DNA from: a virus
Taxonomy: Duplodnaviria > Caudoviricetes
Virus record (IMG/VR): IMGVR_UViG_3300020733_000003
Location: 1-56,738 of that record
Reading direction: 5' to 3' (one strand)
DNA: 56,738 bases
Shown here: positions 1 through 26,905 of the stretch, one piece after another
Layout of the letters: each line of letters begins with the position of its first letter
How positions within the stretch are numbered: the first letter of the stretch is position 1
Translations under genes and position numbers: made by a program
The notes under the pieces: generated by a model
Told to the model about the DNA's origin: nothing
Databases searched by the model: none
The model's input: the letters and a program-made list of their open reading frames with translations, nothing else

Positions 1-99
1 GGGGTCAAACCATAGGGTCAAAAGTTCAAGCATGATCCTCTTCAGTTCAAGCTCATCAGAAATTTGATCCCCTTCGACATGATAGTGAAGAAGTGTTGA
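1..99. repeat. Terminal direct repeat, left copy (identical to 56640-56738); most likely assembler overlap of a circular contig
   Basis: Exact 99-bp match ggggtcaaac...gaagtgttga at both ends; 99 is a common assembly k-mer size. Confidence 0.9.
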
Positions 100-221
100 A
101 GTTAGACACCTCAAAATCAGCCAAAGAATTTTCCAAAACCTAGTATAGAAGATCAAGGGGATCATCAAATGAGCCTCTTGATCCCCTTCGAGTACCCCCT
201 CTTGCTTATCAGACTCCTCTC

Positions 222-250
222 TTGCGCCCCTTGACACCATCTGGTATGCT
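222..250 (+). promoter_or_regulatory. Candidate sigma70-type promoter
   Basis: TTGCGC-17 bp-TATGCT with an extended -10 TG; no obvious downstream ORF. Confidence 0.3.
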
Positions 251-611
251 CTTCTCAGCCACCCTGAAGAAGGGGGGAGGGGGGGGATATTGTCTGAATC
301 CAGACCTCCATGAGCGATTTAGCAGGTGGCTACGACCTCGGACCAAACACTGACGACTCTTATTTTTGTATTGGAATCATGCAGTTCTTTAGGAGGGTTC
401 AAGCAATGAGCCCCTTCCAATCTAGTACCCCACAGTAAAAGTGCTAGTTGGAGCAGGAAGTTGGGAGGTTTCTAAGGATTACTCCAACACAAGAAAGTTT
501 TAATGGCCCGCCCCGAATCATCAAAAATGTATAGTCGCAGGCAGGAAGTGAGCAGTCCCAAGAATTTAGAATCTACTAAGTTTGGGACTGTGGTATGCGC
601 GAGAGGCTAAA

Positions 612-782
612 TCAATTGCTAACGATTAGCCGTCTGACCTTATCGCTGATTCCGGTTCCCGGTTTGGACAAGAGCAGTGTTAACTCCTGCTCGTTTAGGT
701 AGATGTTGAAGGCTTTTCGATACCCCTCTGGTGGCTCGGCTTTACCTTTTGGCCGGCCCGGTTTTGACTTGGTTTGGTTCAT
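612..782 (-). CDS. Small ribbon-helix-helix-like DNA-binding protein (56 aa, not in ORF track)
   Basis: MNQTKSKPGRPKGKAEPPEGYRKAFNIYLNEQELTLLLSKPGTGISDKVRRLIVSN: GRPK, beta-strand FNIYL, then two helices; ATGA overlap with the upstream gene. Confidence 0.6.
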   Translation of the reverse strand: MNQTKSKPGRPKGKAEPPEGYRKAFNIYLNEQELTLLLSKPGTGISDKVRRLIVSN

Positions 783-1069
783 AGTGTAACCTCTGCTCCC
801 CCTCGATAAGCAAAAGAATACGTTTGGAAGGATTGGGCATCGGGCGATACTTGCTTGACTTCCGCAAACTCCATGGTTGCCGCGTCGTAATCGTAGTCGT
901 GCGTTATCATATTCAGGGCCTCGATGATACGCGACTGTAAAGATCGGTTAGCATCGAATCCGGTGACTGATCCGAAAGAGCCACAAGGCTCTTCTAAGTC
1001 ACACCAGTCGTTGTTTGGCTGTCCGTTGCCGATGCAACAGACTTCGATTGATCGTAGTGCCTCACTCAT
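779..1069 (-). CDS. Hypothetical protein
   Basis: 96 aa; overlaps both neighbours in the leftward operon. Confidence 0.7.
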   Translation of the reverse strand: MSEALRSIEVCCIGNGQPNNDWCDLEEPCGSFGSVTGFDANRSLQSRIIEALNMITHDYDYDAATMEFAEVKQVSPDAQSFQTYSFAYRGGAEVTL

Positions 1070-1349
1070 TAATTGCCCCTTCAGTGAGTTTAGTAACGCT
1101 AAGGATTACCACGTCTGGTGACGCGGGATAGTGGTGTTGGTGTTCGTCGTAGCAGTTATCGATGGTGTCGTACGGTAGAACATCGATGTCGATTTCGATA
1201 ATTTCATTGTTGATCTTCTCCAGCGAGACGTCATCCTCAAATGGGAAGTTGAAGGTGTCCTTCAAGGCGTCCTTAAGGTTGTCTGCTTCGACGACGATTT
1301 CAGAATACACTCGGACGTTCCGAGCGAATTGGATGGTGAATTTAGGCAT
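1062..1349 (-). CDS. Hypothetical acidic protein (start revised to MPKFTIQF)
   Basis: AGGAG SD just upstream of ATG at 1349; the longer ORF-track start lies inside the hammerhead. Confidence 0.75.
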   Translation of the reverse strand: MPKFTIQFARNVRVYSEIVVEADNLKDALKDTFNFPFEDDVSLEKINNEIIEIDIDVLPYDTIDNCYDEHQHHYPASPDVVILSVTKLTEGAINE

Positions 1350-1368
1350 TGGTTTTCTCCTGTCTGAT

Positions 1369-1431
1369 GGACTCATCAGCAGTGGCCTTACCACTGGACA
1401 GAGTAGGCTGTCTACCTGCTCTGTTTCGTCC
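1369..1431 (-). ncRNA. Type II hammerhead ribozyme HH1
   Basis: Minus-strand RNA GGAC-GAAA-CAGAGCAGG/UAGACAG/CCUACUCUG-UC^-CAGUGG/UAAGG/CCACUG-CUGAUGA-GUCC: full catalytic core, three stems and a GUC triplet; predicted cut between 1397 and 1396. Confidence 0.93.
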
Positions 1432-1481
1432 TGTAAGAGTTGCTTAAAGTAGAAGGGGGATATGCTCCCCCTTATGGAGTG

Positions 1482-1691
1482 TTAGGCTGTCAAAGACTTA
1501 GCCAATGCTTTAATCCATTGACCGGGATATTCCGATGCGGACGCTAGTCGTAAAATGTGTTGTTTCCCGTCTTCAGTTTTTGACAATGCGGTCAAAACAG
1601 ATTTAGCCGCTCTGACAAGATGCGGGCACGTTTCAAGGTAGTAGCGGTTATTTGCGGGTGTGGGATTGGTTTTCATGGGTTTTGTAAGCAT
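1482..1691 (-). CDS. Hypothetical protein
   Basis: 69-aa ORF in the operon, followed by a hairpin and HH1. Confidence 0.6.
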   Translation of the reverse strand: MLTKPMKTNPTPANNRYYLETCPHLVRAAKSVLTALSKTEDGKQHILRLASASEYPGQWIKALAKSLTA

Positions 1692-1770
1692 GCTTTATTT
1701 CGAGGATGCTTGGACGTAGACTGCAAAGCCAATTTCGGAAGCAATCTTCCGACACTCTTCGATCATTCGG

Positions 1771-2163
1771 TTAGCTCGTTATTAGTTCTTCGTGTACCTT
1801 CTTGTCTTGTTCACGTTGTCCGTCAAAACAGTAGTTGGCTAGGGGGAACGTTCTAATCTCGTATGCCAAGTCTCGAAGATGCTGGGCGTAGTAGGCTTTG
1901 TCAAAATGAGGTTCCAGTTCATTCCAGATAGCTTGAATCTGATCCTCTGGAAACAATGCGCAGATCTTGTTCATCCTGATAGTCGTGATGTTGGTATCGG
2001 TGCTGCCGATCACAGTACAGGCTATCAGCCGTGTTCCGAATTCTGGATCGTCTCCAAGGGGATCGGTGGCTGTCTGAGCAGTCTGCAAAGTTAATGTCGA
2101 ACCCATTCCTGTGTGAATGATGCCGATTGATCCAAGTTCGTAGTAGATTTTCATTATGTTCAC
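1771..2163 (-). CDS. Hypothetical protein (possibly frameshifted near its 3' end)
   Basis: 130 aa; GTGA overlap with the upstream gene. Confidence 0.65.
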   Translation of the reverse strand: MNIMKIYYELGSIGIIHTGMGSTLTLQTAQTATDPLGDDPEFGTRLIACTVIGSTDTNITTIRMNKICALFPEDQIQAIWNELEPHFDKAYYAQHLRDLAYEIRTFPLANYCFDGQREQDKKVHEELITS

Positions 2164-2489
2164 GGGATCAAAAGAGATTTGATCTTGGCAATAGCGTCTT
2201 TAACTTGCGACGTGTCAGAAATGTTGACCATGATATAGCCATCATTATTCGATGAATAGCAAGAAGGTAAAGCGTGACCGGAAAAGCGAACTTTCACTCG
2301 TGGGCCATCAATCATATAGCCTTCGGCATCCAATCCCAAATCATCGTTCCAGACCGTAAGATAACGGGAAGCTGACTTCTCGGAATAACTTGCATAAACG
2401 GTTAAACCTGCTTTTTCTAGTTGATTAGACATTCGATTGAATGAAGATGCTAAGCCAGTGAATCCGCTTGATTTCTTGATAAGTGACAT
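2160..2489 (-). CDS. Hypothetical protein
   Basis: 109 aa; strong SD context AGGAGACAACC-ATG. Confidence 0.8.
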   Translation of the reverse strand: MSLIKKSSGFTGLASSFNRMSNQLEKAGLTVYASYSEKSASRYLTVWNDDLGLDAEGYMIDGPRVKVRFSGHALPSCYSSNNDGYIMVNISDTSQVKDAIAKIKSLLIP

Positions 2490-2499
2490 GGTTGTCTCC

Positions 2500-2579
2500 T
2501 AGTCCCATCGGAGCAGACTTTGGACTGCTCTTGTGGTTTAACAGCCCAGACTGGCTGGACTGCCCATCACCATTGACTA
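2500..2579 (-). ncRNA. Unassigned structured RNA in the hammerhead-equivalent position (candidate ribozyme or processing element)
   Basis: Closing stem UAGUC/GACUA; hairpins CAGCC-AGUCUG-GGCUG and GAGCAG-UCCAAAGU-CUGCUC; ends directly at the SD. Confidence 0.5.
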
Positions 2580-2613
2580 TGTGGGGAAGATAAGACTTCC
2601 TCTTAGTGAGTGT

Positions 2614-2889
2614 TTAGAAAAATGATCTCGGTCTTACATCTGGCCCGTACTTTCCAGAGTGCCGAGCCACACAAAGAAGTTCGTCTAACCAGCCGTCATT
2701 CACTCTTTCCGCAATCGCGTCAAGAATTTCGGTTTTGGTCATTTTGCGAAGTGGAGCGTAACCCCCAGTGATGGAGCATTCGGTTCCTTCGTTTTCCAAG
2801 AGCAAAACGATTAATCCGCTGTTTTTTGACAAAATAATGTGCCCTCGGTAGTTATCGTGAGTGAAAGAGAATGCTGGTTTCGTGATCAT
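2614..2889 (-). CDS. Hypothetical protein
   Basis: 91 aa; AGGGGG SD; lies in the operon. Confidence 0.75.
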   Translation of the reverse strand: MITKPAFSFTHDNYRGHIILSKNSGLIVLLLENEGTECSITGGYAPLRKMTKTEILDAIAERVNDGWLDELLCVARHSGKYGPDVRPRSFF

Positions 2890-3202
2890 TTGCCCCCCTA
2901 TTGAGCATCTCTGTTTCTAGAGATTGGAAGTATGCTCTTGCTTCTGCTTTACCCTTAAATGACTTACCGAATGTAGCATGGCACAGGTAATCAAAGTGAG
3001 TGACACTCCATTTGCGGTTTGTCCACCGTGCCATTGATCCAGCAGGTTCAAACCCCGGCTCATGCTGTTTGAAGTACCAACATCGGTTATTCTCAGAGTC
3101 CACAAACGCATCGATAATCGATACCTGCGACATCTGGCCTTTGGCGTCAGTGTAGTTAGCTAATAGAATCTTCCCTGCTGGGATTTCTCGTTCTTGAATC
3201 AT
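2852..3202 (-). CDS. Hypothetical protein (start revised to MIQEREIP)
   Basis: AAGGAG SD before ATG at 3202; the longer ORF-track start lies inside HH2. Confidence 0.75.
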   Translation of the reverse strand: MIQEREIPAGKILLANYTDAKGQMSQVSIIDAFVDSENNRCWYFKQHEPGFEPAGSMARWTNRKWSVTHFDYLCHATFGKSFKGKAEARAYFQSLETEMLNRGANDHETSILFHSR

Positions 3203-3221
3203 TTTATTGTCTCCTTCTGAC

Positions 3222-3282
3222 GGACTCATCAGCAGTGGCCTTACCACTGGACAAGTAGGCTGTTTACCTACTTGTTTCGTCC
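3222..3282 (-). ncRNA. Type II hammerhead ribozyme HH2
   Basis: GGAC-GAAA-CAAGUAGG/UAAACAG/CCUACUUG-UC^-CAGUGG/UAAGG/CCACUG-CUGAUGA-GUCC; near-identical to HH1, with stem III pairing kept despite changes; predicted cut between 3250 and 3249. Confidence 0.94.
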
Positions 3283-3483
3283 TGTTACTTGTGAGTGAAA
3301 CTCACAGATATAAGCTTTCTGCTCAATAGGCTTATCCCATGATCCGAACCGTTCTGGTTGATCGATTGGTATTACTGCTTTGCCCATGATTAGCTTTGGA
3401 CTGCTACCAAACGGGAAGAGGATTTGCACACTTCCGAGAATGTAGCTTGGTCCGAGAATCGATTGCTTTAATGTTGGTTTCAT
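3268..3483 (-). CDS. Hypothetical protein, first gene of the leftward operon
   Basis: 71 aa; GGAGACAAC-ATG; its stop codon lies inside stem III of HH2. Confidence 0.7.
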   Translation of the reverse strand: MKPTLKQSILGPSYILGSVQILFPFGSSPKLIMGKAVIPIDQPERFGSWDKPIEQKAYICEFHSQVTGRNK

Positions 3484-3499
3484 GTTGTCTCCGGCGCCT

Positions 3500-3558
3500 C
3501 ACTCATCAGAGCAGGGTTGGCAATTCCTGCTGACACCAGCAGTTGCTGGTGTTTCGTG
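3500..3558 (-). ncRNA. Type II hammerhead ribozyme HH3
   Basis: CAC-GAAA-CACCAGC/AACU/GCUGGUG-UC^-AGCAGG/AAUUGCCAAC/CCUGCU-CUGAUGA-GUG; stems differ from HH1/HH2 but the core and topology are the same; predicted cut between 3532 and 3531. Confidence 0.92.
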
Positions 3559-3691
3559 TTTAAAGATCAACTCTATGCAATTGTCAAAGTGCGGACTGTT
3601 GGAAAGCGCCTCATCCGTTTCTGATTGTGCGGTTCTTCCGATCCTCAGATCAGCGACTCTCTGTGGAGTCCTCGGTGCGTCTATGGATAAG

Positions 3692-3719
3692 ATCATAGCA
3701 CGATTCACTGTTTATACAA
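3692..3719 (-). promoter_or_regulatory. Promoter for the leftward ribozyme-containing operon
   Basis: TTGTAT-16 bp-TATGAT with an extended -10 (TGc); GTGCTATGAT recurs at 13233-13242. Confidence 0.55.
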
Positions 3720-4205
3720 GTGGTTTTAGAATAGATTTTAGTGATGGCAGTGAAATACAGTATTGTTACTAGGTGAGGCTATCGATTGAACCTGTGGGTA
3801 AACCAATGTTTCACAGATGTTTCACAGACAAGAGCAGTCTCAGGGGTTAGGTTCAAAACACCCATTTCTTGCCGTCTGGAATGCCCAAAAGTGGGCATCA
3901 AATACCTTGCCTTGTGTTTATATGCCTATTTTAAAAATGGCATCTGAACCGGTTCAGTTTGCGATTTGAGCGATTGGCCCCGACGGGCTGGAGCAGAAAT
4001 TCACAGAAAGTAGTAGACAAACAGGTAGAAACCTACGATCTGAGAATCGTTAGGTTGGCTAAGTATCGTGCGAGGATCGTTTGGAACAGGAAACGAGCAG
4101 AAACTGGCGCAGTTGAGTAGTCCACTGCTGACAGACCAGCAGTCGATGAACAGGCTGTCAGACAACCAAGCAGACGTGCTTAATGGTGCGCTGTGCTGTG
4201 GCACC

Positions 4206-4264
4206 AGCAGTCGAGCAGTCGAGCAGTCGAGCAGTCGAGCAGTCGAGCAGTCGAGCAGTCGAGC
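4206..4264. repeat. Perfect tandem repeat (AGCAGTCG)x7 plus AGC
   Basis: Read directly; lies in a ~900-bp noncoding divergent region. Confidence 0.95.
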
Positions 4265-4488
4265 TTACTCTTGGTTGGTTGGTAGGGTTGGTGGATGGGC
4301 TGTCGCTTTCGCTCAAGTATGTCCCCATGCCCACATGCCCCCCCCCCACACACCCGCTGGCCGCCGATCGCCTCCGCTATCGCCCCGATACAAACTGCGG
4401 CCTATTTTTTTGGACAAAAACCTTTTGGGTAGCATTGTTACTATTTCTCATGGTAATCTAGCGCCGCCCACCCGGGCAAGGAGTTTCT

Positions 4489-4797
4489 ATGTTCATAAAG
4501 CTTCATGAGAACTTTGGTGCAGAGACCTCGGAGACCTACTTCAACATGGCGACGGTCACTAAGGTCTTAAAGAGTCGACAGGACTCGACGTTCTTGATCG
4601 TAGGTGATGAGGGGTGCGAGATCACCGAGACGCCAGAGGAGATCATGAATCTTCTCAAGGTTGCCCAATACAATGCGACGGTTTATCCTGTTTTTGGTTG
4701 GACCCAGCCATTGACTATCAACAGTGAAACGCAGTGGAAGGCAATTCCCCAGACACACACTAGCCCTAACATCAGTGGGGAGGGTCCAAAGGAATGA
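4489..4797 (+). CDS. Hypothetical protein with a FlbD/SwrD-like N-terminus
   Basis: Pattern MFIKL...YFN...V...DSTFLIV...ITETPEEI; AGGAG SD. Confidence 0.55.
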   Translation: MFIKLHENFGAETSETYFNMATVTKVLKSRQDSTFLIVGDEGCEITETPEEIMNLLKVAQYNATVYPVFGWTQPLTINSETQWKAIPQTHTSPNISGEGPKE

Positions 4798-5216
4798 AAG
4801 CGCCGTGGATGAGGGAAGATGGCCCGGGCTTTGTGTTCCGCAAGTTCGAGCCGAGGGATAAGCCCGATAGTTTTCAGGTCTTCTGCCGCTACCGGGTTGG
4901 CGACAATCGGTCGCTGGGTGTTTACCGGATGGGGAACAAGGGGCCAGTGAAATCGCAGGCTCTGAAGATGTTGACAGACGCGACGCCTGAGACACTGCTG
5001 ATGATCCTGTGGCACTTTATCGAGACGCCTATGCTGATCAAGGGGCCGGGAACCCCTGTTAGCCACAAGAAGGGCAAGTATGATGCGGCTAAGAAGCACA
5101 TCATCAAGGCGCTGGAGATCTTTGTGGAGATCAGGGAGGAGGACGAGGAGGAGGCAAGGAAGCTGGCCGAAGAGGTGAACGGAAAGAAGGAGAAGGTGGA
5201 AGATGATGGGAAGTAG
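4794..5216 (+). CDS. Hypothetical protein
   Basis: 140 aa; ATGA coupling; charged C-terminus. Confidence 0.75.
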   Translation: MKAPWMREDGPGFVFRKFEPRDKPDSFQVFCRYRVGDNRSLGVYRMGNKGPVKSQALKMLTDATPETLLMILWHFIETPMLIKGPGTPVSHKKGKYDAAKKHIIKALEIFVEIREEDEEEARKLAEEVNGKKEKVEDDGK

Positions 5217-5595
5217 TGAGCCAAGTATTCCCAGGCACAAGTGGCGCGAAGTCACCAGTTATCGTCGGGGGCGACCGGGTGAGCATAAGGTGTTTGCCTA
5301 CGATGTGGACTTGACTCCAGAGGAGATCGAGGCAGGCCATGTGGTGACGCCTACAGTGGTGTACTCGATCCACGCTGGGGACAGCGACGATGTGCTGGCT
5401 GTGCTTAGGTTTGACGAGGTTCTAACCCCAGATGTGGTGTGTGCGATCCTTGACGACCATTTGACGACTAGGGCGAAGACAGAGAACATCAGGATGCTGT
5501 ACGACCTGAATGTGGCGATCGGCAAGATCAAAGAGGCGTTGGTCCACTTGGTCCGCAGGCATGATGCGGTGCCAGTGCAGGAACCTGAAGGATAA
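5203..5595 (+). CDS. Hypothetical protein
   Basis: 130 aa; overlaps the upstream gene; followed by a hairpin. Confidence 0.7.
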   Translation: MMGSSEPSIPRHKWREVTSYRRGRPGEHKVFAYDVDLTPEEIEAGHVVTPTVVYSIHAGDSDDVLAVLRFDEVLTPDVVCAILDDHLTTRAKTENIRMLYDLNVAIGKIKEALVHLVRRHDAVPVQEPEG

Positions 5596-5630
5596 AAATG
5601 CCCCCTACCGGACCAAGGTGAGGGGGCTAT
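5594..5630. terminator. Hairpin between convergent genes
   Basis: GCCCCCT...AGGGGGC stem with an A-run on the left. Confidence 0.5.
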
Positions 5631-5792
5631 GGAGGATACACGTATGGACACCGTGTCCCTTTGTTGCTTGTCATTTTGTACCGACGTCGCTATTTTTGTT
5701 GAAGGAGACCGCGATCTATCGGGGAGTAATGAAACCCAAGCACCTGCAATGGAAGTTATACCATAGATGGTTTTGATTCTGGCGAGACATTG

Positions 5793-6026
5793 TTAATCTT
5801 CTGAATCTTCAGCAAGAATCCTCTTTAGTTTATCGCTAGAGCGCACAAACATTCCCAGACAAAGAGAAGCGCCACCATGATAACCCATTTTAAACACGGT
5901 CTGATTCTGTAGAATATTATGCTCTTCTAATGCCACAACTGAGGCGATGCCGTATCGTAAAGCCTCATGGCAAAGTTCATCAAACCTATCCATAAAATCA
6001 TCAAAAGAGTTGGGTTCACTCATCAT
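5793..6026 (-). CDS. Hypothetical protein
   Basis: 77 aa; ATGA coupling. Confidence 0.7.
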   Translation of the reverse strand: MMSEPNSFDDFMDRFDELCHEALRYGIASVVALEEHNILQNQTVFKMGYHGGASLCLGMFVRSSDKLKRILAEDSED

Positions 6027-6349
6027 GTTATCTTATGCACCTCCCAATCGCATTCTTCGTCTTCTGCTACCAAGGTTAGTTCGTCGCATCTATCCAATTC
6101 TTGAGTGACGCCATCAAGGGCTTCCTTAATTTGACGAATGCTGAAGTAGTTGAAGCAAGCCGCCGCATTTACATAGCACCAGACTTTGCCGCCGCCCACA
6201 TTCTCTGTGTTCATCAGGTTGAAGCGTTGGCCATTAGCCAACGGAGAGATCCGATCGTTGATGACAGCTAAGGCAAGCAATGACTCCGAGCCATCATTAT
6301 CGTCGCAGTTCAGTGAGAACGCTAGAATAGCGTGGGTAAGGTAGCTCAT
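6023..6349 (-). CDS. Hypothetical protein
   Basis: 108 aa; TAATG coupling. Confidence 0.75.
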   Translation of the reverse strand: MSYLTHAILAFSLNCDDNDGSESLLALAVINDRISPLANGQRFNLMNTENVGGGKVWCYVNAAACFNYFSIRQIKEALDGVTQELDRCDELTLVAEDEECDWEVHKIT

Positions 6350-6549
6350 TACGCCTGCAACTTCAGAAGCTCTTTGATTTCCGCAAAGTACTTCTCAAAC
6401 TCATGCGGATACTCCGCTGGGTTGACCACCCGAAGGATGACGATGAAGAAGAGAATGACCAGCTTCTCTCTGGTCGTTAGTGGGCCTTTAGATTTGTTCA
6501 CAGGAAATACCTCGCAAGCCTCTGCCCCTGTTCTCGCTCGGGTAGACAC
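6349..6549 (-). CDS. Small membrane protein (start uncertain)
   Basis: Hydrophobic stretch LVILFFIVILRVV; stop coupled to the next gene. Confidence 0.5.
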   Translation of the reverse strand: MSTRARTGAEACEVFPVNKSKGPLTTREKLVILFFIVILRVVNPAEYPHEFEKYFAEIKELLKLQA

Positions 6550-6956
6550 CCAAAGTTCTCAATGATTGCTAGTGCCTTATGGAATGTAATGTACTTAGTG
6601 AACCAGAGGCTGTAGATACGAGCCAAATGTGGATCCTCTGAACCCACGTAGTAGGTGCAGGTGTGCCCGTTATCCTCTGGAGTCACAAAGCTGACGACGG
6701 CGTGAGGCACCAGTCGCTTGATCAGCTTGCAGAACTCGTTTTCAAACTCAAGGATGTTCATCTCAGTGCCGCGAGCAAGGATCAAATCCTTTATGTCGGC
6801 GTAGGCTTGAGTAAATGATTTGCCCTTGTCCATCTCCTTGTCGAGTAATCCCTTCCATGTCATCCCATCCATTATGGAGTCTGGGTAGTTGTAAAACTTT
6901 GCAAGCTTTTCGAGTTGCTGAACTGCCATACCGAGTGAATCTAGAATTAGTGCCAT
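6498..6956 (-). CDS. Hypothetical protein (start revised to MALILDSL)
   Basis: The ORF-track extension runs through the tRNA-like and structured RNA elements. Confidence 0.65.
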   Translation of the reverse strand: MALILDSLGMAVQQLEKLAKFYNYPDSIMDGMTWKGLLDKEMDKGKSFTQAYADIKDLILARGTEMNILEFENEFCKLIKRLVPHAVVSFVTPEDNGHTCTYYVGSEDPHLARIYSLWFTKYITFHKALAIIENFGCLPEREQGQRLARYFL

Positions 6957-6974
6957 AAGTGTGGTGTGGTTAGT

Positions 6975-7041
6975 AACCCCGGCTCGGCCAACTGACTTAG
7001 CCCTCGCAGAAAGCTTCGCCGGGATCGATTTGCCGCCAGTC
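6975..7041 (-). ncRNA. Candidate pseudoknotted RNA between the tRNA-like element and the next gene
   Basis: Crossing stems GACUGGC/GUCAGUU and GAUCCCGGC/GCCGGGGUU, plus inner hairpin GCUUUC-UGC-GAGGGC. Confidence 0.45.
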
Positions 7042-7076
7042 TTGCCCTGACAAAAACAAGAACCAGCGGACTTCTT

Positions 7077-7180
7077 TTGTATACATGGCGGGACTTGAAC
7101 CCACATCCTCCATGATCGGTTGCCTTGTCCGGTTACGATCCGGGAGCTTCCGTGGCGTTCTACCGTTGAGTTACATAGAT
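7077..7180 (-). tRNA. tRNA-like RNA or degenerate tRNA with about 29 extra nt in the anticodon arm
   Basis: Acceptor AUCUAUG/CAUGUAU, U8A9, D-loop CUCAACGGUAGA, T-arm GUGGG-UUCAAGU-CCCGC and 3' ACAA; D and anticodon stems are partly mismatched. Confidence 0.65.
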
Positions 7181-7192
7181 AACAACGCTATG

Positions 7193-7792
7193 TTACACCA
7201 TAAATGTATTCAGGTCAACCTCTTCGGCATTTCCAATCGTTCCAGACTCGGAATATTGCCAAGCGTAGTAGGTCGTGAAGGGCGCTGGGATTCTTGGGAC
7301 CAATACTCCGTACTCAGCGATCCAGAGCTTGAACACAGAAAGGCGCGGGTCGTTGTTCAGTACCTCATCGATGAATGACGGGGATGCATAGAGTCCTACA
7401 CTGTCAATTCCCGTCGAACGAATGATCTGGGATCTCATGTTGAGGAGCAGGTTAATCCGGGTGTCAAGCTCGATTGTCATCCATGGATCTTTCCCCCGAG
7501 ATGATTCGGCGTCAAGAACGGGGAAAAGATTGCCTACCGTGCCATCTAGGGCAGTCAAGAAGTTGACGATCTGCGACTTGGACATGATCGTCGGATCGAC
7601 AAAATGATATGCACCGTGGAGGATCTCATTTGCCTCGGCCTGCTGTCGGAATGTGGCGTAGCTTGGGTCTTTGAACACTGAACCTTGGGAAGCTTTAAGG
7701 TAGCAACGGGTGTAGCCCTGCCGTCTGGCAAGTTGGAAGTCAAATCCTTGTTGGTGGTGGCTGATATCGAATCCTGCGTAGGTGGTTGACAT
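7193..7792 (-). CDS. GH25 family muramidase (endolysin)
   Basis: Motifs GFDISHHQ, YLKASQG, GAYHF, PVLDAE, LWIAEY, WQYS and VDLN. Confidence 0.92.
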   Translation of the reverse strand: MSTTYAGFDISHHQQGFDFQLARRQGYTRCYLKASQGSVFKDPSYATFRQQAEANEILHGAYHFVDPTIMSKSQIVNFLTALDGTVGNLFPVLDAESSRGKDPWMTIELDTRINLLLNMRSQIIRSTGIDSVGLYASPSFIDEVLNNDPRLSVFKLWIAEYGVLVPRIPAPFTTYYAWQYSESGTIGNAEEVDLNTFMV

Positions 7793-7801
7793 GGCTTGTG
7801 G

Positions 7802-8236
7802 TTACTCCTTTGTGTGTTCAATGTACGGATGTGTGGTCATAAAACGTGGGTTCTTGCCGTTCGGGTTGTGACTGCGGCCAAAAGCTTTCCAGTCGATTGG
7901 GATTCCGCAACCCTCGGCTTCGACTAGGGCGTTGATCTCGCCTTTCAAGCTTTTGATGCGGCTTATAATCGTAGCCATGGCTTCGTAATCGTTGCTGTGT
8001 GATGAGAAGGTGAACCGATAGGCGGCTAGAATTTGGTGGTGATGGCTTGGATCGCCCTCGGTGGGGCGAACTATGTCGATAAGAAGCATCCAGATTCGGT
8101 TCGAGTCGTAGTTTTTATACTCTGGAGACACCATATTCAGTGTCATTCTCGGCGCATTCAGGCTTGCATCGGTTGACAACGAGTAGTTGTGAACCACGGG
8201 CTTACTTTTAGAGAACTTAACCGAGAATGACAGCAT
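7802..8236 (-). CDS. Hypothetical protein
   Basis: 144 aa; GGAGG SD. Confidence 0.75.
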   Translation of the reverse strand: MLSFSVKFSKSKPVVHNYSLSTDASLNAPRMTLNMVSPEYKNYDSNRIWMLLIDIVRPTEGDPSHHHQILAAYRFTFSSHSNDYEAMATIISRIKSLKGEINALVEAEGCGIPIDWKAFGRSHNPNGKNPRFMTTHPYIEHTKE

Positions 8237-8281
8237 AATTCGCCTCCAGATATGTACTAGATTAGACGAATCTGAGGTCGA

Positions 8282-8641
8282 TTAGTGTGACCAAGTAGCG
8301 CCAAAAACAAATCCGATCGATTTGCTGTTGACGTCGCTGAGCTGGAACTTCTTCGACACGTCGTAGGCGTCACCAACGCCAGCAAACAGGCTGAAGTTAG
8401 TGGTCTTGGCGTAGTGGAGGACCACACCTGCTCCGAGGGCTGGCTCCTGAGTCGTTGCGTTGGCTCCGAATAGGCCATCGACGGACAATGTGAACGGCCC
8501 TTTATTATAAAGCTGTCGTACAGGCTTGTCAATGACGGCAAATGTGTTTTTACGCTGGATGAAGCTGGCAAATCCGGTTGTGTCGGCCATGATGGAGGAC
8601 GATAGGGTGGCGAGGATCGTGAATGTAATGAGTCTTTTCAT
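8282..8641 (-). CDS. Exported, beta-strand-rich protein (possible outer-membrane protein)
   Basis: Signal-peptide-like MKRLITFTILATLSSSIMA; amphipathic strands; ends IGFVFGATWSH. Confidence 0.55.
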   Translation of the reverse strand: MKRLITFTILATLSSSIMADTTGFASFIQRKNTFAVIDKPVRQLYNKGPFTLSVDGLFGANATTQEPALGAGVVLHYAKTTNFSLFAGVGDAYDVSKKFQLSDVNSKSIGFVFGATWSH

Positions 8642-9021
8642 ATGGCTACCATTTTGAAGGAGGTTACGACGGATCGGAACAGGACATCTTTAGCTTGCTG
8701 TTCCAGCGGCAATTTATCAAATGGAACTAAGCAAGGATGTGTCTTCGCGCCCGCATCCTTCACCTCACCATAAACCCAACCGTCTTCAATTTTTTGAGCT
8801 GACCATGAGTCGTGATTGGCACTTGCGGGGGCATCGGGATTAGCCAATACAAATTGCACGCCTTTTATGGCGCTGTCTTTTTGCCACGTTGGGGCAAGGT
8901 TCCATTCTGTTTGCGAAAAGTCGCCAAGTGCCGCACAATATGCACGGTTTGCTTCGTGGCATACCCGAGCAATCTGTTCTACTTCGATCATAGGTATTTC
9001 TCCTTTTGGAAATATTTTCAA
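8638..9021 (-). CDS. RyR-domain protein
   Basis: IARVCHEANRAY...NHDSW...GWVYGEVKD...THPCLVPFDKLP..Q.AKD. Confidence 0.88.
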   Translation of the reverse strand: MKIFPKGEIPMIEVEQIARVCHEANRAYCAALGDFSQTEWNLAPTWQKDSAIKGVQFVLANPDAPASANHDSWSAQKIEDGWVYGEVKDAGAKTHPCLVPFDKLPLEQQAKDVLFRSVVTSFKMVAI

Positions 9022-9029
9022 AGCGTAGT

Positions 9030-10127
9030 TTAGCCCTTTGTGGCTTTGTATTTGGACCTTAGAGCCTGTAAATAGATCAAGCCGTCGTCAATGCTGTGAA
9101 AGATGTTGACCTTTTCGATGTCGGATTCGGTCATCGTGTTGACTACAACCATCACTGATGGGCTGATATAGGAAGCCTCAAAGTCTCCCGCGTCGGCGTA
9201 GTCGTCGTGCTTCTTGTACGAGGCTAGGGTGATGGATCTTCCAAGGACTCCACTGTATCCGTTCCTTGTCAAGGTGAATCCAGAGGAGTGAATGTGCCCA
9301 CCGATGGTTACGTCGGCTTTTGACCCCCGGAAATTCTTCTTCAGTGGACCATGCGACGGGTTATACATCGAGTGTCCCTTGTGGTAGTGCCTGATATCAA
9401 ACATGACCTCAGAGGAGCCGCAGATTAGTTTTGCGGCTATGCCGTGGTCGACCCCGAGTATTTTATGCTTCTGACACAGCGTGGCCGCTGTGGATGCCCA
9501 CTTGTCGTGGTTACCAAGAATGACAATCAGCCAAGGGACGTAGGTGATAAGCCACTCCATTAGCTCGATCGCTTCGTCGGCAGTGCCGTGTTGCCTGCCA
9601 TAGAGGTGGCCAAGTGCGCGGATCCAGTTGTTAGTGAGGTCGCCAATGTTGATGCCGTAGACATGGTCGTTGGATTTGATTGCCTCAAGATCCTCGATCA
9701 TCTTCTCGATGTCAGTTCCATCATCGTCAACGTGTGGATCGCCACAGCAGAGAATGGCGTATGGGCCTTCGTCGGAAATGGTAATCGTGACCCCGGATTT
9801 CTTCTGGTCGTAGTGGGCCTTGTTCGCCTTGAATGTTTCGACCTTCTCGGTCAGAATATCCTTGATGGGTCGAGCAAGTTTTGGAAGAGAACTGATCACC
9901 ACACCGGGTTTCAGTTGCTGGGCCACGCTTGGCAGTGGTTCATCTATTGTCGCCGTCTCGATAGGTCTTGGCAGTGGGTTAGAGAGACCCAGTTCTTTTA
10001 CCTTGTGAGTGATCGCCACCCGTGACCGCTTCAGGATATTCCCTATTTCGGAATAGGGAGTGGTCTTATAAAGATCGATGACGAGGTTGATCTCGTCCTG
10101 TGTCCACATCTTTTTCTTTTGGCGCAC
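9030..10127 (-). CDS. Calcineurin-like metallophosphoesterase with an N-terminal Myb/HTH-like domain
   Basis: GDPH, GDLTNN, GNHD, RH and GHIH metal motifs; N-terminal WTQDEINL...YSEIGNILKRS. Confidence 0.85.
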   Translation of the reverse strand: MRQKKKMWTQDEINLVIDLYKTTPYSEIGNILKRSRVAITHKVKELGLSNPLPRPIETATIDEPLPSVAQQLKPGVVISSLPKLARPIKDILTEKVETFKANKAHYDQKKSGVTITISDEGPYAILCCGDPHVDDDGTDIEKMIEDLEAIKSNDHVYGINIGDLTNNWIRALGHLYGRQHGTADEAIELMEWLITYVPWLIVILGNHDKWASTAATLCQKHKILGVDHGIAAKLICGSSEVMFDIRHYHKGHSMYNPSHGPLKKNFRGSKADVTIGGHIHSSGFTLTRNGYSGVLGRSITLASYKKHDDYADAGDFEASYISPSVMVVVNTMTESDIEKVNIFHSIDDGLIYLQALRSKYKATKG

Positions 10128-10140
10128 AAAAACCTCCTTG

Positions 10141-10416
10141 CTACTTGCAGTCCCACTTCCTGAGCGACTTGTTGATTCGGCTGTTCGGATCTTTGGCAGT
10201 CTTCTCGCTGGTCAGCTTTTCTTTCATGCCCTCCATGCGAGAGCAGAAGCTCTTCCTGCGGCCTGCCGCTTTTGGCGAACTGTCGGCTTCCTTCTTTGTT
10301 ACTGGCGGCTTCAGATTGTGGCCCTCTGCCTTTGCCGATGCTCTACCCTTGGCATTCAATCCACCCTTGGGATTTTGCCCTTCCCTTCGTTGCCATGCTG
10401 GTGTCTTCAAGTTCAT
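10141..10416 (-). CDS. Conserved basic phage protein (DUF6321-like)
   Basis: AWQRREGQNPKGGLNAKGRAS...RRKSFCSRM...DPNSRINKSLRKWDC; GGAGG SD. Confidence 0.75.
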   Translation of the reverse strand: MNLKTPAWQRREGQNPKGGLNAKGRASAKAEGHNLKPPVTKKEADSSPKAAGRRKSFCSRMEGMKEKLTSEKTAKDPNSRINKSLRKWDCK

Positions 10417-10472
10417 GGAACCTCCAATGGCAATTCTACAGTATAAGCCGAAATCCTAGTACATTGGCGTGA

Positions 10473-10724
10473 CTACAAAGAAGGAACATACCTACAATGC
10501 CGATTGCTGATGCGCCAGATTTCACCTCGATCGTTGGCAAGCATGAACCAGAGTTCTCCGTCGGGCGAATGCTCGATCGCGCCAAGAACAGCGTAGGTTT
10601 GGCCTTCAGTGAACCCACTAAGGGCTGGAACGGGAGTCAATGGTTGCTGACCGGCAAAAGTTTTGATCGTTACGTGTAGATTAGGTTGAAGGTAAAGAGC
10701 CATCAATCTATTCTCCCCAATCAT
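10473..10724 (-). CDS. Hypothetical protein
   Basis: 83 aa; beta-rich pattern. Confidence 0.65.
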   Translation of the reverse strand: MIGENRLMALYLQPNLHVTIKTFAGQQPLTPVPALSGFTEGQTYAVLGAIEHSPDGELWFMLANDRGEIWRISNRHCRYVPSL

Positions 10725-10779
10725 CAGAAACAGTCATACAGACATCCCGTTCAACAAAGCCTTTCGGCTAGGGTTTTAG

Positions 10780-11067
10780 TTACCATCCTGTAATCACCTC
10801 TGCTTGAAAGCCTTTCTCAGATAGCACATCGTAGACCATGCGTCTTAGCGCATCATTGCCGTCTCGGACCTTGGCAATCACAACGCTCCAATATGGTTGG
10901 GAATCTTGCTCCCCAACTCTTTGAAATGACTTGTGAAGTTCCACCGATACGGGTGGAGTTTGGCTTGCATCAAACAAAACCTTCCATTGGTCCGACTCAT
11001 CCCGTAACAACTGATCCACAATTTTGTAGATGCGTTTAGCTTCTTCGGCTAGTTGTTCACTGTTCAT
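10780..11067 (-). CDS. Hypothetical protein
   Basis: 95 aa; AGGGAG SD. Confidence 0.7.
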   Translation of the reverse strand: MNSEQLAEEAKRIYKIVDQLLRDESDQWKVLFDASQTPPVSVELHKSFQRVGEQDSQPYWSVVIAKVRDGNDALRRMVYDVLSEKGFQAEVITGW

Positions 11068-11233
11068 TCAAATTCTCCCTTGTACGTTCCTGCTCTTTCT
11101 TGTCTTGTACCGTCCGATTACCTTGGCAGTAGTCGCATAGCCCGTGGTTGCGGCAGTGGGGCGAGACGGCTTTGGCTTTATGGTATGGTTTCCGCTTCTC
11201 TTTACCGTGTTCGATTGCTTTATCTAGGCTCAC
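11057..11233 (-). CDS. Small Cys/His phage protein (58 aa, not in ORF track)
   Basis: GTG start coupled to the upstream stop; MSLDKAIEHGKEKRKPY...CRNHGLCDYCQGNR. Confidence 0.7.
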   Translation of the reverse strand: MSLDKAIEHGKEKRKPYHKAKAVSPHCRNHGLCDYCQGNRTVQDKKEQERTRENLNEQ

Positions 11234-11556
11234 CTTCTTGCATTCTTTTGAATGCCCCCATACAAGTACAAGAATTGCAACGAATCAAGGTTGTTTTCCA
11301 GACAATGCTTTTCGTGGCGAATACGTTTATTTTTAGCTTTCCAGTAGGCAATATCCTTCTGGTATTTGTTCTCGTGGTAGTGGATCGCTGATTCTGCTAT
11401 TTGCAGTTGACGTTGTGCGGTGTCTCGTTCCCATTTAAGAAGTTTGATTGCTTGGCTTGCTTTCTTGTTTTCAATAGTGACTATTACCAAAACGACAATA
11501 AGTGATGAACCGCAGAGTAAAGCAAGAGTCATAGCCGACGGGTAGAAATGTGTCAT
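11230..11556 (-). CDS. Membrane-anchored coiled-coil protein (start revised to MTHFYP)
   Basis: ATGA overlap at 11553-11556; N-terminal hydrophobic helix. Confidence 0.65.
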   Translation of the reverse strand: MTHFYPSAMTLALLCGSSLIVVLVIVTIENKKASQAIKLLKWERDTAQRQLQIAESAIHYHENKYQKDIAYWKAKNKRIRHEKHCLENNLDSLQFLYLYGGIQKNARR

Positions 11557-11846
11557 TTTTTGCCCCCTACAATGACTTCTGCGGGTTCGTCCAGTTGTTC
11601 TGCGACAATACACCCATCAGGATGTTTTACGCAGTCTTCGACGGCTAATCGAGTTGCATGGTCCACGTAGAAGTACATCTTTCCACGTTTGTTCAGTTGC
11701 CAAACTTCATGTTTGATTGCCGTTGGTGGGTGGTTGACTGCTACCAATGGCTTAAACGCTAGATAAGCAATGATTAAGGCAAGTCCCAATATAATCGCAA
11801 TACCAATCCTTCCCAGCGTTTCAAATGCTTTTCCAATTCCTTCCAT
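11553..11846 (-). CDS. Single-pass membrane protein
   Basis: TM helix IGIAIILGLALIIAYLAF; strong SD. Confidence 0.75.
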   Translation of the reverse strand: MEGIGKAFETLGRIGIAIILGLALIIAYLAFKPLVAVNHPPTAIKHEVWQLNKRGKMYFYVDHATRLAVEDCVKHPDGCIVAEQLDEPAEVIVGGKK

Positions 11847-11872
11847 TCACTCCCCCTCCTTTGCCTGTTCTG

Positions 11873-12061
11873 TCATGCCGCCACCTCAAATTCTTTCATC
11901 TCTGTAATAGTCCATCTAATAGACTCTCCAAACCTGTTCGTTACATAGAAGTAATGGGCTTTGTTGCTTGACATGGGCTTCAACACCGTGAAGACAGGAA
12001 ACCCTTCACCCTTGCTTAATTTCTGACCTTTCTTTAGGCTCTTAGCTGTTTCGGTTGTCAT
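11873..12061 (-). CDS. Hypothetical protein
   Basis: 62 aa; AAGGAG SD. Confidence 0.65.
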   Translation of the reverse strand: MTTETAKSLKKGQKLSKGEGFPVFTVLKPMSSNKAHYFYVTNRFGESIRWTITEMKEFEVAA

Positions 12062-16653: not shown

Positions 16654-17363
16654 TGGTTACCGATTCGGTAAAAGTCAGGCTTCCAAATGATATCAGTCAC
16701 AACATCGATATTAAGGCGGCTTCCGAAGCAATCGCGGTCGTCGGCAACCGAGTTGTGGTCGAGATGCTTCCAGTTGACAAGCCCACTACGCTCCTACTTC
16801 CAGACAACCTAATCAACTTCTGGCGAGGTTGCGTCGGTGTAGTAATTCAGTCTCCCAATTTCGTGGTTAAAGCCAAAGGAAAGCTGATCGAACCTCCCAT
16901 GGTTGGCGATCTTGTCATTGTTCACCCACAAGATGGAGTGCATATCGACAATGCCGAAATGGGCAAGTACAAAACGTCGAATCAAATCCGAGTTTACGGA
17001 GCTTATGCAGAGTACGTCGGTGAGCCGATTGCCTGCGACTGGTGGGAATCAATTATGGCAAGCATTGACACAAACATGAATCTAAGGGCTTACGGTAACA
17101 AGAGCATCTTCAAGAAGGACAAGGCGGTCGGCGTTTCGGATAACGGAATCTTCCTCCCTGATGGCCATCACCAGCGAAATGAAATGGCAATTATTGTGTC
17201 AAGGGGGCCATTGGCCGATCCAGATGCAAAAGTGGGCGACAGAGTATCGTACAATCCACATTACATAGAACGCGACGGCGTTGATCTCGGCACAGGAGTT
17301 TCGAACTTCGACTACTTCATCGCCAGCGATCTAGCAATCAATTACGTCGTTACTGAGGATTGA
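16653..17363 (+). CDS. Protein with two GroES/Cpn10-like domains
   Basis: VGNRVVVE...LLLPD...GVVI...VGDLVIV and AYGNKSIF...GIFLPD...AIIVSRGP...KVGDRVSY. Confidence 0.75.
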   Translation: MVTDSVKVRLPNDISHNIDIKAASEAIAVVGNRVVVEMLPVDKPTTLLLPDNLINFWRGCVGVVIQSPNFVVKAKGKLIEPPMVGDLVIVHPQDGVHIDNAEMGKYKTSNQIRVYGAYAEYVGEPIACDWWESIMASIDTNMNLRAYGNKSIFKKDKAVGVSDNGIFLPDGHHQRNEMAIIVSRGPLADPDAKVGDRVSYNPHYIERDGVDLGTGVSNFDYFIASDLAINYVVTED

Positions 17364-19027
17364 CATTGAAAGACGAAACCCCCAAGAAAATAAAGCTGAC
17401 CGACAAAGGGCTGGTTGATATCCCAGAGCTTGAGGAGCGAAACAAGTTAGCCCTCAAGATCAAACTGGATATTGACGCAGGTATTGAGACCCAAGGCTCA
17501 ATGGGAACTTGGTGGTTGGAGGCCGAACGAGCCTATCTTAACGAGGCTCCTTCGGTGCAGAGTCAGCTTGATCAGGGGCCAAACGATCCCGGTTATCAGG
17601 TCTTTACGATGCCATTGACTCAAACCCGAGTCGATATGCTTTCTGCACAGGTCACGACTGTTGTCACCAAGCAAGATCCGTTGATGACGGATATCAGTGA
17701 CGATGAAGATGTTGCCGAGAAGAGGCAGAAAACACTGCATCGCGTCTGGATGGATGGAAAGTTCCCTGTCGCAGTATCCAAGGTCGCCAATATGTGTGGT
17801 GTCAAGGACATTGGTATCTACCGGATAACTCCGGGCCTTGTGCCGGGGTCCGTCAAGATCGACGCAATCGACCCGCAGGACTGGACAATTTTCCCTGCAA
17901 CCCCAGAAGGAATACAGGCGACGGCTTGTGTTGGTCACAGAACCAACCACCGTCGCATTGTTGTCCAGAGCAAGCAAAAGACTGGCGAGTATTACGAGAC
18001 GGAAGATTTGCCAGAATCTACTCAGGCTGACCACGATGACGACCACGAACAGGTTCACACCAGAAGCGAACTCAGTACAGCTTCTCCAGACAAGAACAAC
18101 CAGTTGATCGAGATTTGGGATGTTGTCGTTCGATTGGATCTGGAAGAGACAGGCAACGAGCAGTTGTACCGAGCCAGCGTTGATTATGAAGGCTGTCAAC
18201 TTCTAAGCCTGCAACCTTACAAGTTTAGCTACATCTGGTATTTCCGGTCGTATTACATCGGCTCCAGCAAGTATTTTTACTCGGGTTCCAGTGTCGCTCG
18301 AAATCTCGATCCCTGCCAGACGGCGAAGAACAACTTGTTCAGCGCCTTCTACGGTGGATCCATGTCGGCGGCTATGCCAAAGACCTTTGGCCCTCCTCTG
18401 GAAAGCGGAGAGAAGTTTACAAAAGCTGGTTACGGCGACTACATTCCGACGGAAGGTGGGCAGACTCCATTTACGCCGGGTGGTCAGTTTAGCGGCCAAG
18501 CATTTCCCCCAATGCTCCAAATCGTTGAGCGAGATGCTGACATGGTCAGCAGGGTAAGCCAGAACACTCAGGGCGCTCAGGCTACAGGACAGACTACGGC
18601 AACCGAGCAAAGTATTATTGCCGCTGGCGTTGCGGTCGGTCTTGAGATGTTTATTGCCAACTTCACCTCTGAGTTTCCAGAAATGGCGGCTCACACCATG
18701 GAGTTGATTGCCGACGACTACGAAGCATTTGAGCAGAGATTTGGAACGATTTACCCAGACCCAACCCCAGAAGAATTGGAAGCACAGCGGCAGGACACGT
18801 TGCAGAAGCTACTTGGCCAAGCAGTTGGGCAACCGCCAATGCCAGATCAAATGCCATCTCCTGACATGAATAGTGGCATGATGCCACAGCATATGCCTCC
18901 GATCGATCAGGGGCAACCTGTTTCTCCGATCCCCGGAGTGCATGGGCCTACTGATGCCGTTGGATTGCCGCTTGATCTGGGACAAGGTGGATCGCTAATC
19001 ACAGGCGCTCCAAGCCACATACTTTAA
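17360..19027 (+). CDS. Portal protein, N-terminal and main part
   Basis: Position after terminase; size; features IDPQDWTIFP, YSGSSVARNLDPCQ..KN, TTATE; Pro/Gln-rich end. Confidence 0.8.
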   Translation: MTLKDETPKKIKLTDKGLVDIPELEERNKLALKIKLDIDAGIETQGSMGTWWLEAERAYLNEAPSVQSQLDQGPNDPGYQVFTMPLTQTRVDMLSAQVTTVVTKQDPLMTDISDDEDVAEKRQKTLHRVWMDGKFPVAVSKVANMCGVKDIGIYRITPGLVPGSVKIDAIDPQDWTIFPATPEGIQATACVGHRTNHRRIVVQSKQKTGEYYETEDLPESTQADHDDDHEQVHTRSELSTASPDKNNQLIEIWDVVVRLDLEETGNEQLYRASVDYEGCQLLSLQPYKFSYIWYFRSYYIGSSKYFYSGSSVARNLDPCQTAKNNLFSAFYGGSMSAAMPKTFGPPLESGEKFTKAGYGDYIPTEGGQTPFTPGGQFSGQAFPPMLQIVERDADMVSRVSQNTQGAQATGQTTATEQSIIAAGVAVGLEMFIANFTSEFPEMAAHTMELIADDYEAFEQRFGTIYPDPTPEELEAQRQDTLQKLLGQAVGQPPMPDQMPSPDMNSGMMPQHMPPIDQGQPVSPIPGVHGPTDAVGLPLDLGQGGSLITGAPSHIL

Positions 19028-26026: not shown

Positions 26027-26905
26027 ATGGCACTGTTTACTGTTAATGATGTAATCACAAGGGCAACTCTTCACCTGTCCGACTTTCCCCCTGCGGTCGA
26101 CGGATATTGCACAGGCGGGGTCTCGGGAACTACGTTAACCGTATCCGCTGTTGCCAGTGGGCTTCCGCAGGTTGGACAGACGTTGTCTGGGACTGGAATT
26201 ACTGACGGCACCAAAATCCTTGCTCCGATCTCAGTCGCAGGCGACGGCACAGGCACCTACACGGTCAGTATAAGCCAAACTGTTTCTGGTGGCACTCAAA
26301 TCACACTTGAGAATGCAACAGCTCTCCAGATCATCAACGACGTTCAGGCCGACATCCTTCGCGCCGTCCGACTTTATCCGGTAACAACCCGAACGGTCAC
26401 GCTAATCTCGGGCCAGCAGTTCTACGCACTTGATCCAGACATCTACCGAATCTGGAGTTGCGTTTGGCAGAATAACGCCAACATCACAAGCCAGATCAAG
26501 ATTTTTGAGACCAGCCGAGATGAGCTTGACTATCAGGCTCCAAACTGGCAGGCGCAAAGCCCAACGATTACCTACAAGTATTTCGAGGACGGCGGCAACA
26601 TTGGCTTTGTTCCTCCTCCGCTGATCCCGACCACATCGGGATATCCAATCGTCAAGATTTATTGCACCACTGCCAGTCCATTACTCAGCAATGAGGACAC
26701 ACTGCCCCCGCAGGTTCCAACTCCCGATGCTTGGGTTTGGGGATGCTGTGCAAGGTGGGCTACAATGCAAAGGCGCGATGACGCCGCTGGCTTTGCTGAT
26801 CTCGCCACCGGAGCGAAGGACGACCTCATCCGGTTTGTCAACGGACGGCTTGCACGTCAGAAGAGTCGAGTGATGCAGTCGTACCCAAGGGTACGCAACA
26901 TATAG
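26027..26905 (+). CDS. Head-tail adaptor / tail tubular protein A-like, with an inserted beta domain
   Basis: TVNDVITRA..., [28 protein letters not shown]. Confidence 0.7.

Follow-up and report, generated by a model that had tools for sequence, protein, structure and literature searches.

Twister ribozymes are described as being built from the stems P1, P2 and P4 and the pseudoknots T1 and T2, with a scissile U-A step adjoining P1, and they are divided into types P1, P3 and P5 by the location of the chain termini (PMC5408937, in excerpt). For types P1 and P3, an active-site guanine and adenine are reported in the same excerpt. Cleavage is an internal transesterification at the U-A step, which leaves a 2',3'-cyclic phosphate and a 5'-OH (excerpts of PMC5408937 and PMC8782182). 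Ribozymes of the hammerhead and twister classes often occur in association with phage genes and other ribozymes, and association with known ribozymes and phage genes was the basis for finding pistol, hatchet and twister-sister (PMC4604425, abridged text). Three type II hammerheads near phage-like genes in D. vulgaris were active by cyPhyRNA-seq (excerpt of PMC8782182). According to the excerpted text of PMC6765202, the location near phage genes suggests a phage role for hammerhead and twister ribozymes; for bacterial examples of both, a function in processing polycistronic transcripts has been put forward, with more work needed on their purpose. In the excerpts of the literature, including that of PMC6765202, the bacterial and phage roles of such ribozymes are called largely elusive.

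The window, that is, the whole stretch of DNA analyzed here, comprises 56,738 bases and represents a virus record that is complete and has direct terminal repeats. At its left end, small ORFs follow one another on the minus strand, and the gap between ORF 2614-2889(-) and ORF 2160-2489(-) is occupied by a structured element at 2579-2500(-). The element is very probably a type-P5 twister self-cleaving ribozyme carried in a leftward minus-strand polycistronic transcript of small phage genes, as judged from its sequence and from structure models. Class membership and structure are supported, and from the analogy with the family we infer cleavage and an effect on expression. Ribozyme class, permutation type and genetic setting have all been described before; the locus is a routine instance, which standard Rfam annotation would label.

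Assignment to the Twister-P5 family

The whole window was compared by cmscan with Rfam 15 (4227 families, gathering thresholds), and Twister-P5 (RF02684) at 2513-2571(-) was the only family over threshold. The match reached 45.2 bits, the gathering score being 37.6, and covered model positions 1-58 of 58. Its E value was 3.1e-6 in the whole window, 4.9e-7 in 1-9000 and 7.3e-10 in a single-family search, in which 0 of 14 control genomes matched RF02684. A permissive whole-window Rfam scan also returned the match. The original prediction had held that the element fits no class and is a candidate new ribozyme class; it had proposed a cmscan against the Rfam ribozyme models as a check and had allowed that a clear match to a known class would make the element known rather than new. 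Such a match was obtained and, because it is full-length and above the gathering score, the element represents a known kind of RNA and no new ribozyme class.

The strongly conserved letters of the model in loops L1 and L4 and at the N-A cleavage step by P1 (GA..GG, UAA, CA and GUCC.AAG.C) were all aligned in the element, and when 21 sequences of its subfamily were aligned, these columns showed no variation or a conservation of 90% or more. Every departure from the RF02684 consensus at a paired position was compensated on the partner side, in P2, P4, T1 and T2, and one P2 pair of the consensus was deleted jointly on both strands.

No Rfam match to pistol, HDV, hatchet or twister-sister was listed up to E = 10 in 1-9000, nor up to E = 1 across the window; the likenesses to pistol and HDV that had been pointed out earlier found no counterpart there. 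Within 2500-2579, no Rfam match to a hammerhead was obtained at E <= 10. As had been stated, the CUGAUGA...GAAA core is absent from 2500-2579; a pattern search found two matches in the window, both of them elsewhere.

Structure of the element

When 2500-2579 was folded alone, the MFE and centroid structures were the same three-way junction with P5, P2, P1 and P4 (-29.9 kcal/mol and a z-score of -2.74; 3 of 200 shuffled sequences were equally stable), while the fold of the whole gap had z -2.15. All helices proposed earlier were present: UAGUC/GACUA corresponds to P5, UGGU/ACCA to P2, the CAGCC/GGCUG arm to P1 and GAGCAG...CUGCUC to P4. The 5' strand of P5, UAGUC at 2575-2579(-), lies just outside the Rfam match and pairs in both the MFE and the centroid structure with the 3' strand GACUA at 2500-2504(-), whose final base also opens the Shine-Dalgarno AGGAG. 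P2 consists of GGU at 2569-2571(-), aligned to P2 of the model, and ACC at 2535-2537(-), a pairing found in the model alignment, in the fold and in the covariation of the subfamily. It has three pairs here versus four in the Rfam consensus, and the 3-pair form is common to the whole subfamily, for which no experimentally characterized member came up.

Between P2 and P1, the internal loop L1 at 2564-2568(-) reads GA and then UGG, the 5' side of T1, and was aligned to the consensus GAGgG; its UGG (2566-2564) complements CCA at 2521-2523. The P1 hairpin at 2541-2563(-), GCAGUCCA/UGGGCUGU, has eight pairs, including two G-U pairs, and a 7-nt loop at 2549-2555, and was found both as P1 of the model and in the folds. 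At the P1-P2 junction, UAA at 2538-2540(-) corresponds to an invariant UAA in the model alignment and contains the predicted scissile bond U2540/A2539. The 5' side of T2, AC at 2533-2534(-) in the junction after P2, was aligned to the consensus GC and complements GU at 2517-2518. P4 (2511-2530(-)), recovered by model alignment and by folding, is the 6-bp hairpin GAGCAG/CUGCUC, and its loop L4 UCCAAAGU (2517-2524(-)) carries the 3' sides of T1 (CCA, 2521-2523) and T2 (GU, 2517-2518). P1 is thus capped by a loop, the chain termini lie in P5 and there is no P3, which is the P5-type permutation.

Pseudoknots and conservation among phage copies

The structure line of RF02684 holds nested helices only, and therefore the match score ignores both pseudoknots. 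T1 in the element is UGG (2566-2564):CCA (2523-2521) versus GgG:CcC in the consensus, and T2 is AC (2534-2533):GU (2518-2517) versus GC:GC, both pseudoknots being changed on both sides. The pairing of the P4-loop CCA with a GA-UGG stretch had been recognized in the original prediction, and so had the twister-like loop. The partner, however, is the upstream UGG at 2566-2564 and not the downstream CGAUGGG at 2510-2504(-) chosen there, and the twister topology seemed open because CCA had been paired with this wrong GAUGG. The statement that the topology does not complete was mistaken, as the RF02684 match is full-length and both pseudoknots can form. The second GAUGGG (2509-2504, within CGAUGGG at 2510-2504(-)) is located in the linker between P4 and P5 and could in principle compete with T1. 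It looks coincidental, since a second GAUGGG was found in the 3' flank of none of the other subfamily copies.

For comparison, a degenerate DNA pattern built from the element was used; its 36 hits were spread over 35 viral records. Of these records, 23 contained Twister-P5 matches at E <= 0.001, and 22 had one above the gathering score. The other 12 pattern-hit records were treated as chance and left out. The total of 66 matches (29.1 to 61.7 bits) together with the window copy gave 67 sequences, 56 of them distinct. UAA stood at the P1-P2 junction in 55 of the 56 distinct copies, and a Shine-Dalgarno-like site with a start codon followed at most 40 nt downstream in 50 of the 56, as counted with a loose pattern.

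The T1 triplets were taken at fixed offsets from both match ends, blind to pairing. They were fully paired in all 56 distinct copies and comprised eight triplet types, while 2000 shuffles gave a mean of 19.3 and a maximum of 29. The search pattern had fixed the T1 and T2 letters in 22 of the 56 copies; among the 34 copies whose letters it left free, T1 paired in all 34. T2 was paired in 48 of 49 anchored copies (7 of the 56 were unanchored) versus a shuffle mean of 46.2, and since T2 hardly varies in the set, its support rests mainly on the change between the window copy and the consensus. The T1 form of the element, UGG:CCA, occurred in 25 of the 56 distinct copies, and its T2 form, AC:GU, in 45 of the 49 anchored ones.

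The subfamily of the window copy, which shares the 3-bp P2, was aligned by MAFFT (21 sequences) and counted on the twister structure including the pseudoknots. An alignment of 36 short copies was left out of the counts, because the 3-bp and 4-bp P2 forms were misaligned there. In the 21-sequence alignment, 97.5% of 314 cells paired versus 73.0% in shuffles, none of 500 shuffles reaching the observed value; for the nested helices, this figure is partly a product of selection, because the sequences were chosen by the element-derived pattern and the same covariance model. When the partner columns were slid by 1-3 positions, only 17-44% pairing was left. Among the 15 pairs, 12 changed on both sides. 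Covariation was found in all three pairs of P2, in the outer three pairs of P1 and in three of the four counted pairs of P4. The T2 column pair 48/67 was AU in 20 rows and GC in one.

These data bear on the possibility that the element is a decayed relic of twister ancestry, which has lost cleavage and persists only as a structured spacer. Among the 66 phage matches its 45.2 bits rank in the lower half, and its P2 has only 3 bp, but the 3-bp GGU/ACC P2 together with UGG:CCA recurs as a subfamily, in which the strong covariation of P1 and P4 argues for selection on the fold. Likewise, the second GAUGGG (2509-2504) could compete for the loop CCA, yet the invariant loop positions of the model are all kept, and the paired changes are compensated in both pseudoknots as well. 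A decayed copy, which had been entertained earlier, is considered improbable because each change at a paired position has a compensating partner.

Relatives with the same slot were sought through the two flanking proteins, which gave only 1 and 2 weak loci with 34-43% identity over short stretches, and megablast of 1-12000 against the phage collection gave no match. The terminase gave 38 loci. The two nearest (74-75% identity) were on fragments of 10.8 and 4.4 kb, which were judged to fall short of the early region, the former by its match position and the latter by its size. Twister-P5 was found in 0 of 18 distantly related records. These searches thus yielded no close relative with the slot.

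Several records of the comparison set carried arrays of Twister-P5 matches. The largest number was in G013:C1:16170-29766 (locus L049), with 14 matches in 13.7 kb on one strand; these copies sit between ORFs and often start at the base after a stop codon. Other arrays were present in G022 (L054) and G030 (L060) with 9 matches each, in G003 (L043) with 5 and in G033 (L062) with 4. No description of such arrays was found in the literature searched; the supplements of the founding papers, which lay outside the search, may list similar copies or arrays.

Gap layout and surrounding genome

On the minus strand, the gap begins with the stop codon of ORF 2614-2889(-) at 2616-2614(-). It is followed by CACUCACUAAG at 2612-2602(-), the sole exact match in the search for it, and by a 5-bp hairpin, GGAAG-UCUUAU-CUUCC, at 2600-2585(-). 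Both are outside the ribozyme, and the hairpin was not terminator-like in a terminator scan. Then come the structured element, the Shine-Dalgarno AGGAG at 2500-2496(-) and the AUG at 2489-2487(-), which starts the 109-aa ORF 2160-2489(-). The layout is as given in the original prediction, and its identity with the gap named HH1 there is borne out 5' of ORF 1062-1349(-), where a hammerhead-like core replaces the structured element.

Sigma-70-like and terminator-like sites in 1-6000 occurred at chance level, and none of them was on the minus strand in the gap that holds the twister. For this reason, a polycistronic substrate is the simplest reading. A search for RNA sequencing runs over 1000-4000 returned none. 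The terminator-like sites numbered 7 versus 6.0 expected. One of them, at 2510-2531 on the plus strand, is the reverse complement of P4 and would fit a chance match by a non-catalytic structure, such as stability hairpins, a protein-binding site or a terminator, for which the modest z-scores of the folds (-2.15 for the gap and -2.74 for 2500-2579) could also speak. However, terminator-like sites are no more frequent than chance, the neighbouring genes are on the minus strand while this site is on the plus strand, the RF02684 match has an E value of 3.1e-6 over the window, and a simple hairpin function needs no pseudoknot complementarity. A non-catalytic structure is accordingly given very little credence.

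No PHROG family was found for either protein flanking the gap or for any of the seven small proteins scanned from 1062-3483. The portal and the adaptor (ORFs 17360-19027(+) and 26027-26905(+)) matched the SU10-type models PF23899 and PF24175, and these sequence matches suggest a podovirus-like phage. A 3035-aa ORF at 33362-42469(+) was without a Pfam family. A tRNA-like element at 7080-7180(-), with a well-formed T arm and an insert of 40 nt replacing the anticodon loop, scored 26.7 bits versus a gathering score of 29. ARAGORN called no tRNA there, nor did it at default settings when introns were allowed; at a lowered threshold with introns it made an implausible call only.

Hammerhead-like neighbours

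Three hammerhead-like elements of type II layout, open at stem II, are located in other gaps of the leftward operon at 1369-1431(-), 3222-3282(-) and 3492-3559(-), each just 5' of a GGAG and a start codon. In all three, the parts follow in the order GAAA, stem III hairpin, GUC, stem I hairpin, CUGAUGA. All were below the Rfam thresholds: Hammerhead_II gave 31 bits at 3492-3559(-) (gathering score 37), Hammerhead_3 gave a partial match of 20 bits at 1352-1399, and no Rfam match was listed for 3222-3282(-). Stem I is near-identical in the elements at 1369-1431 and 3222-3282, and the stop codon of ORF 3268-3483 is inside stem III of the latter.

With the twister included, four self-cleaving motifs of two classes, recognized by their sequences, fall within about 2.2 kb occupied by small orphan genes. 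The original prediction was right that a self-cleaving-ribozyme motif occupies the same type of intercistronic slot as the hammerhead-like neighbours, and wrong in taking it for a new class. The occurrence of ribozyme-like elements in other such slots of the operon could also fit a new self-cleaving class partly resembling twister, pistol and HDV, which is hardly credible in view of a full-length RF02684 match above the gathering score, the presence of both pseudoknots and the lack of pistol, HDV, hatchet and twister-sister matches at E <= 10 in 1-9000.

The motif CACUCNNUAAG, followed directly by a hairpin, opens two gaps, at 1471-1481(-) and 2602-2612(-), and these were its only two exact matches in the window. 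It presumably resembles the core of T3/T7-type promoters. A promoter of this type was rejected: no single-subunit RNA polymerase family was found in the 18 large ORFs scanned, and the motif was not enriched, with 15 matches versus 10.7 expected at one mismatch and 2 exact matches. In the MFE fold of the hammerhead gap (z -4.23), the CUCC of the motif pairs with the downstream GGAG and encloses the ribozyme.

Proposed mechanism and role

By the family model, P1, P2 and P4 of this type-P5 twister would form a three-way junction with the closing helix P5. The P4 loop is predicted to dock into the P1-P2 internal loop via T1 (UGG:CCA) and T2 (AC:GU), and by analogy the 2'-OH of U2540 would attack the phosphate before A2539, so that the RNA would be cleaved between U2540 and A2539. 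The upstream product would end after the P1 hairpin with a 2',3'-cyclic phosphate and would keep CACUCACUAAG and the hairpin 2600-2585 near its 3' end. The downstream product would begin with a 5'-OH and have a 50-nt leader with the P4 hairpin, AGGAG and AUG for the 109-aa ORF 2160-2489. Cleavage may separate the adjacent cistrons and allow their individual stability and translation. The 5' strand of P5 would depart with the upstream product, which might free the sequence abutting the Shine-Dalgarno site.

Processing of polycistronic transcripts is a suggestion from the literature and not an established function. A further-reaching reading, which regards the twister as a single unit in a phage operon punctuated by ribozymes, where cleavage is required for expression and switches on translation of the next gene, appears rather unlikely to us. 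If it were true, cleavage would set every cistron free with a leader that begins with a 5'-OH and part an upstream strand from the Shine-Dalgarno region, namely the P5 strand in the twister gap and CUCC in the hammerhead gap. Masking of the Shine-Dalgarno site by an upstream strand, as modelled by folding, is offered as speculation only: the folds of the twister gap were inconsistent between windows, and the third gap puts CACUCAC in a local hairpin.

The locus is a clean example of its kind: within a single operon of a complete phage genome (56.7 kb), one twister and three hammerhead-like elements each directly precede a ribosome-binding site. It may serve as a convenient system for testing the role of such ribozymes in phage gene expression, which is treated as unsettled in the excerpt of PMC6765202.

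Comparison with known systems

The element agrees with Twister-P5 (RF02684, clan CL00120) in the order of its parts, the conserved loop nucleotides, T1 and T2, the U-A step by P1 and the location of the termini in P5. It differs from the RF02684 consensus in its 3-pair P2 (four pairs in the consensus), its UGG:CCA T1 and its AC:GU T2, and such variants are common in phage copies. Twisters of types P1 and P3 (O. sativa, env22), as presented in the excerpt of PMC5408937, share with it P1, P2, P4, T1, T2 and the U-A cleavage step. Their termini, however, lie in P1 or P3, whereas P1 of the element is capped and its termini are in P5.

Twister-sister is only vaguely similar in secondary structure; in the same excerpt it is described as cleaving the opposite loop strand and as having no pseudoknots, whereas the element has both. 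The type II hammerheads of D. vulgaris (excerpt of PMC8782182) share the genetic setting and presumably the same job with the element. Their catalytic core is a different one, as the element is without CUGAUGA/GAAA.
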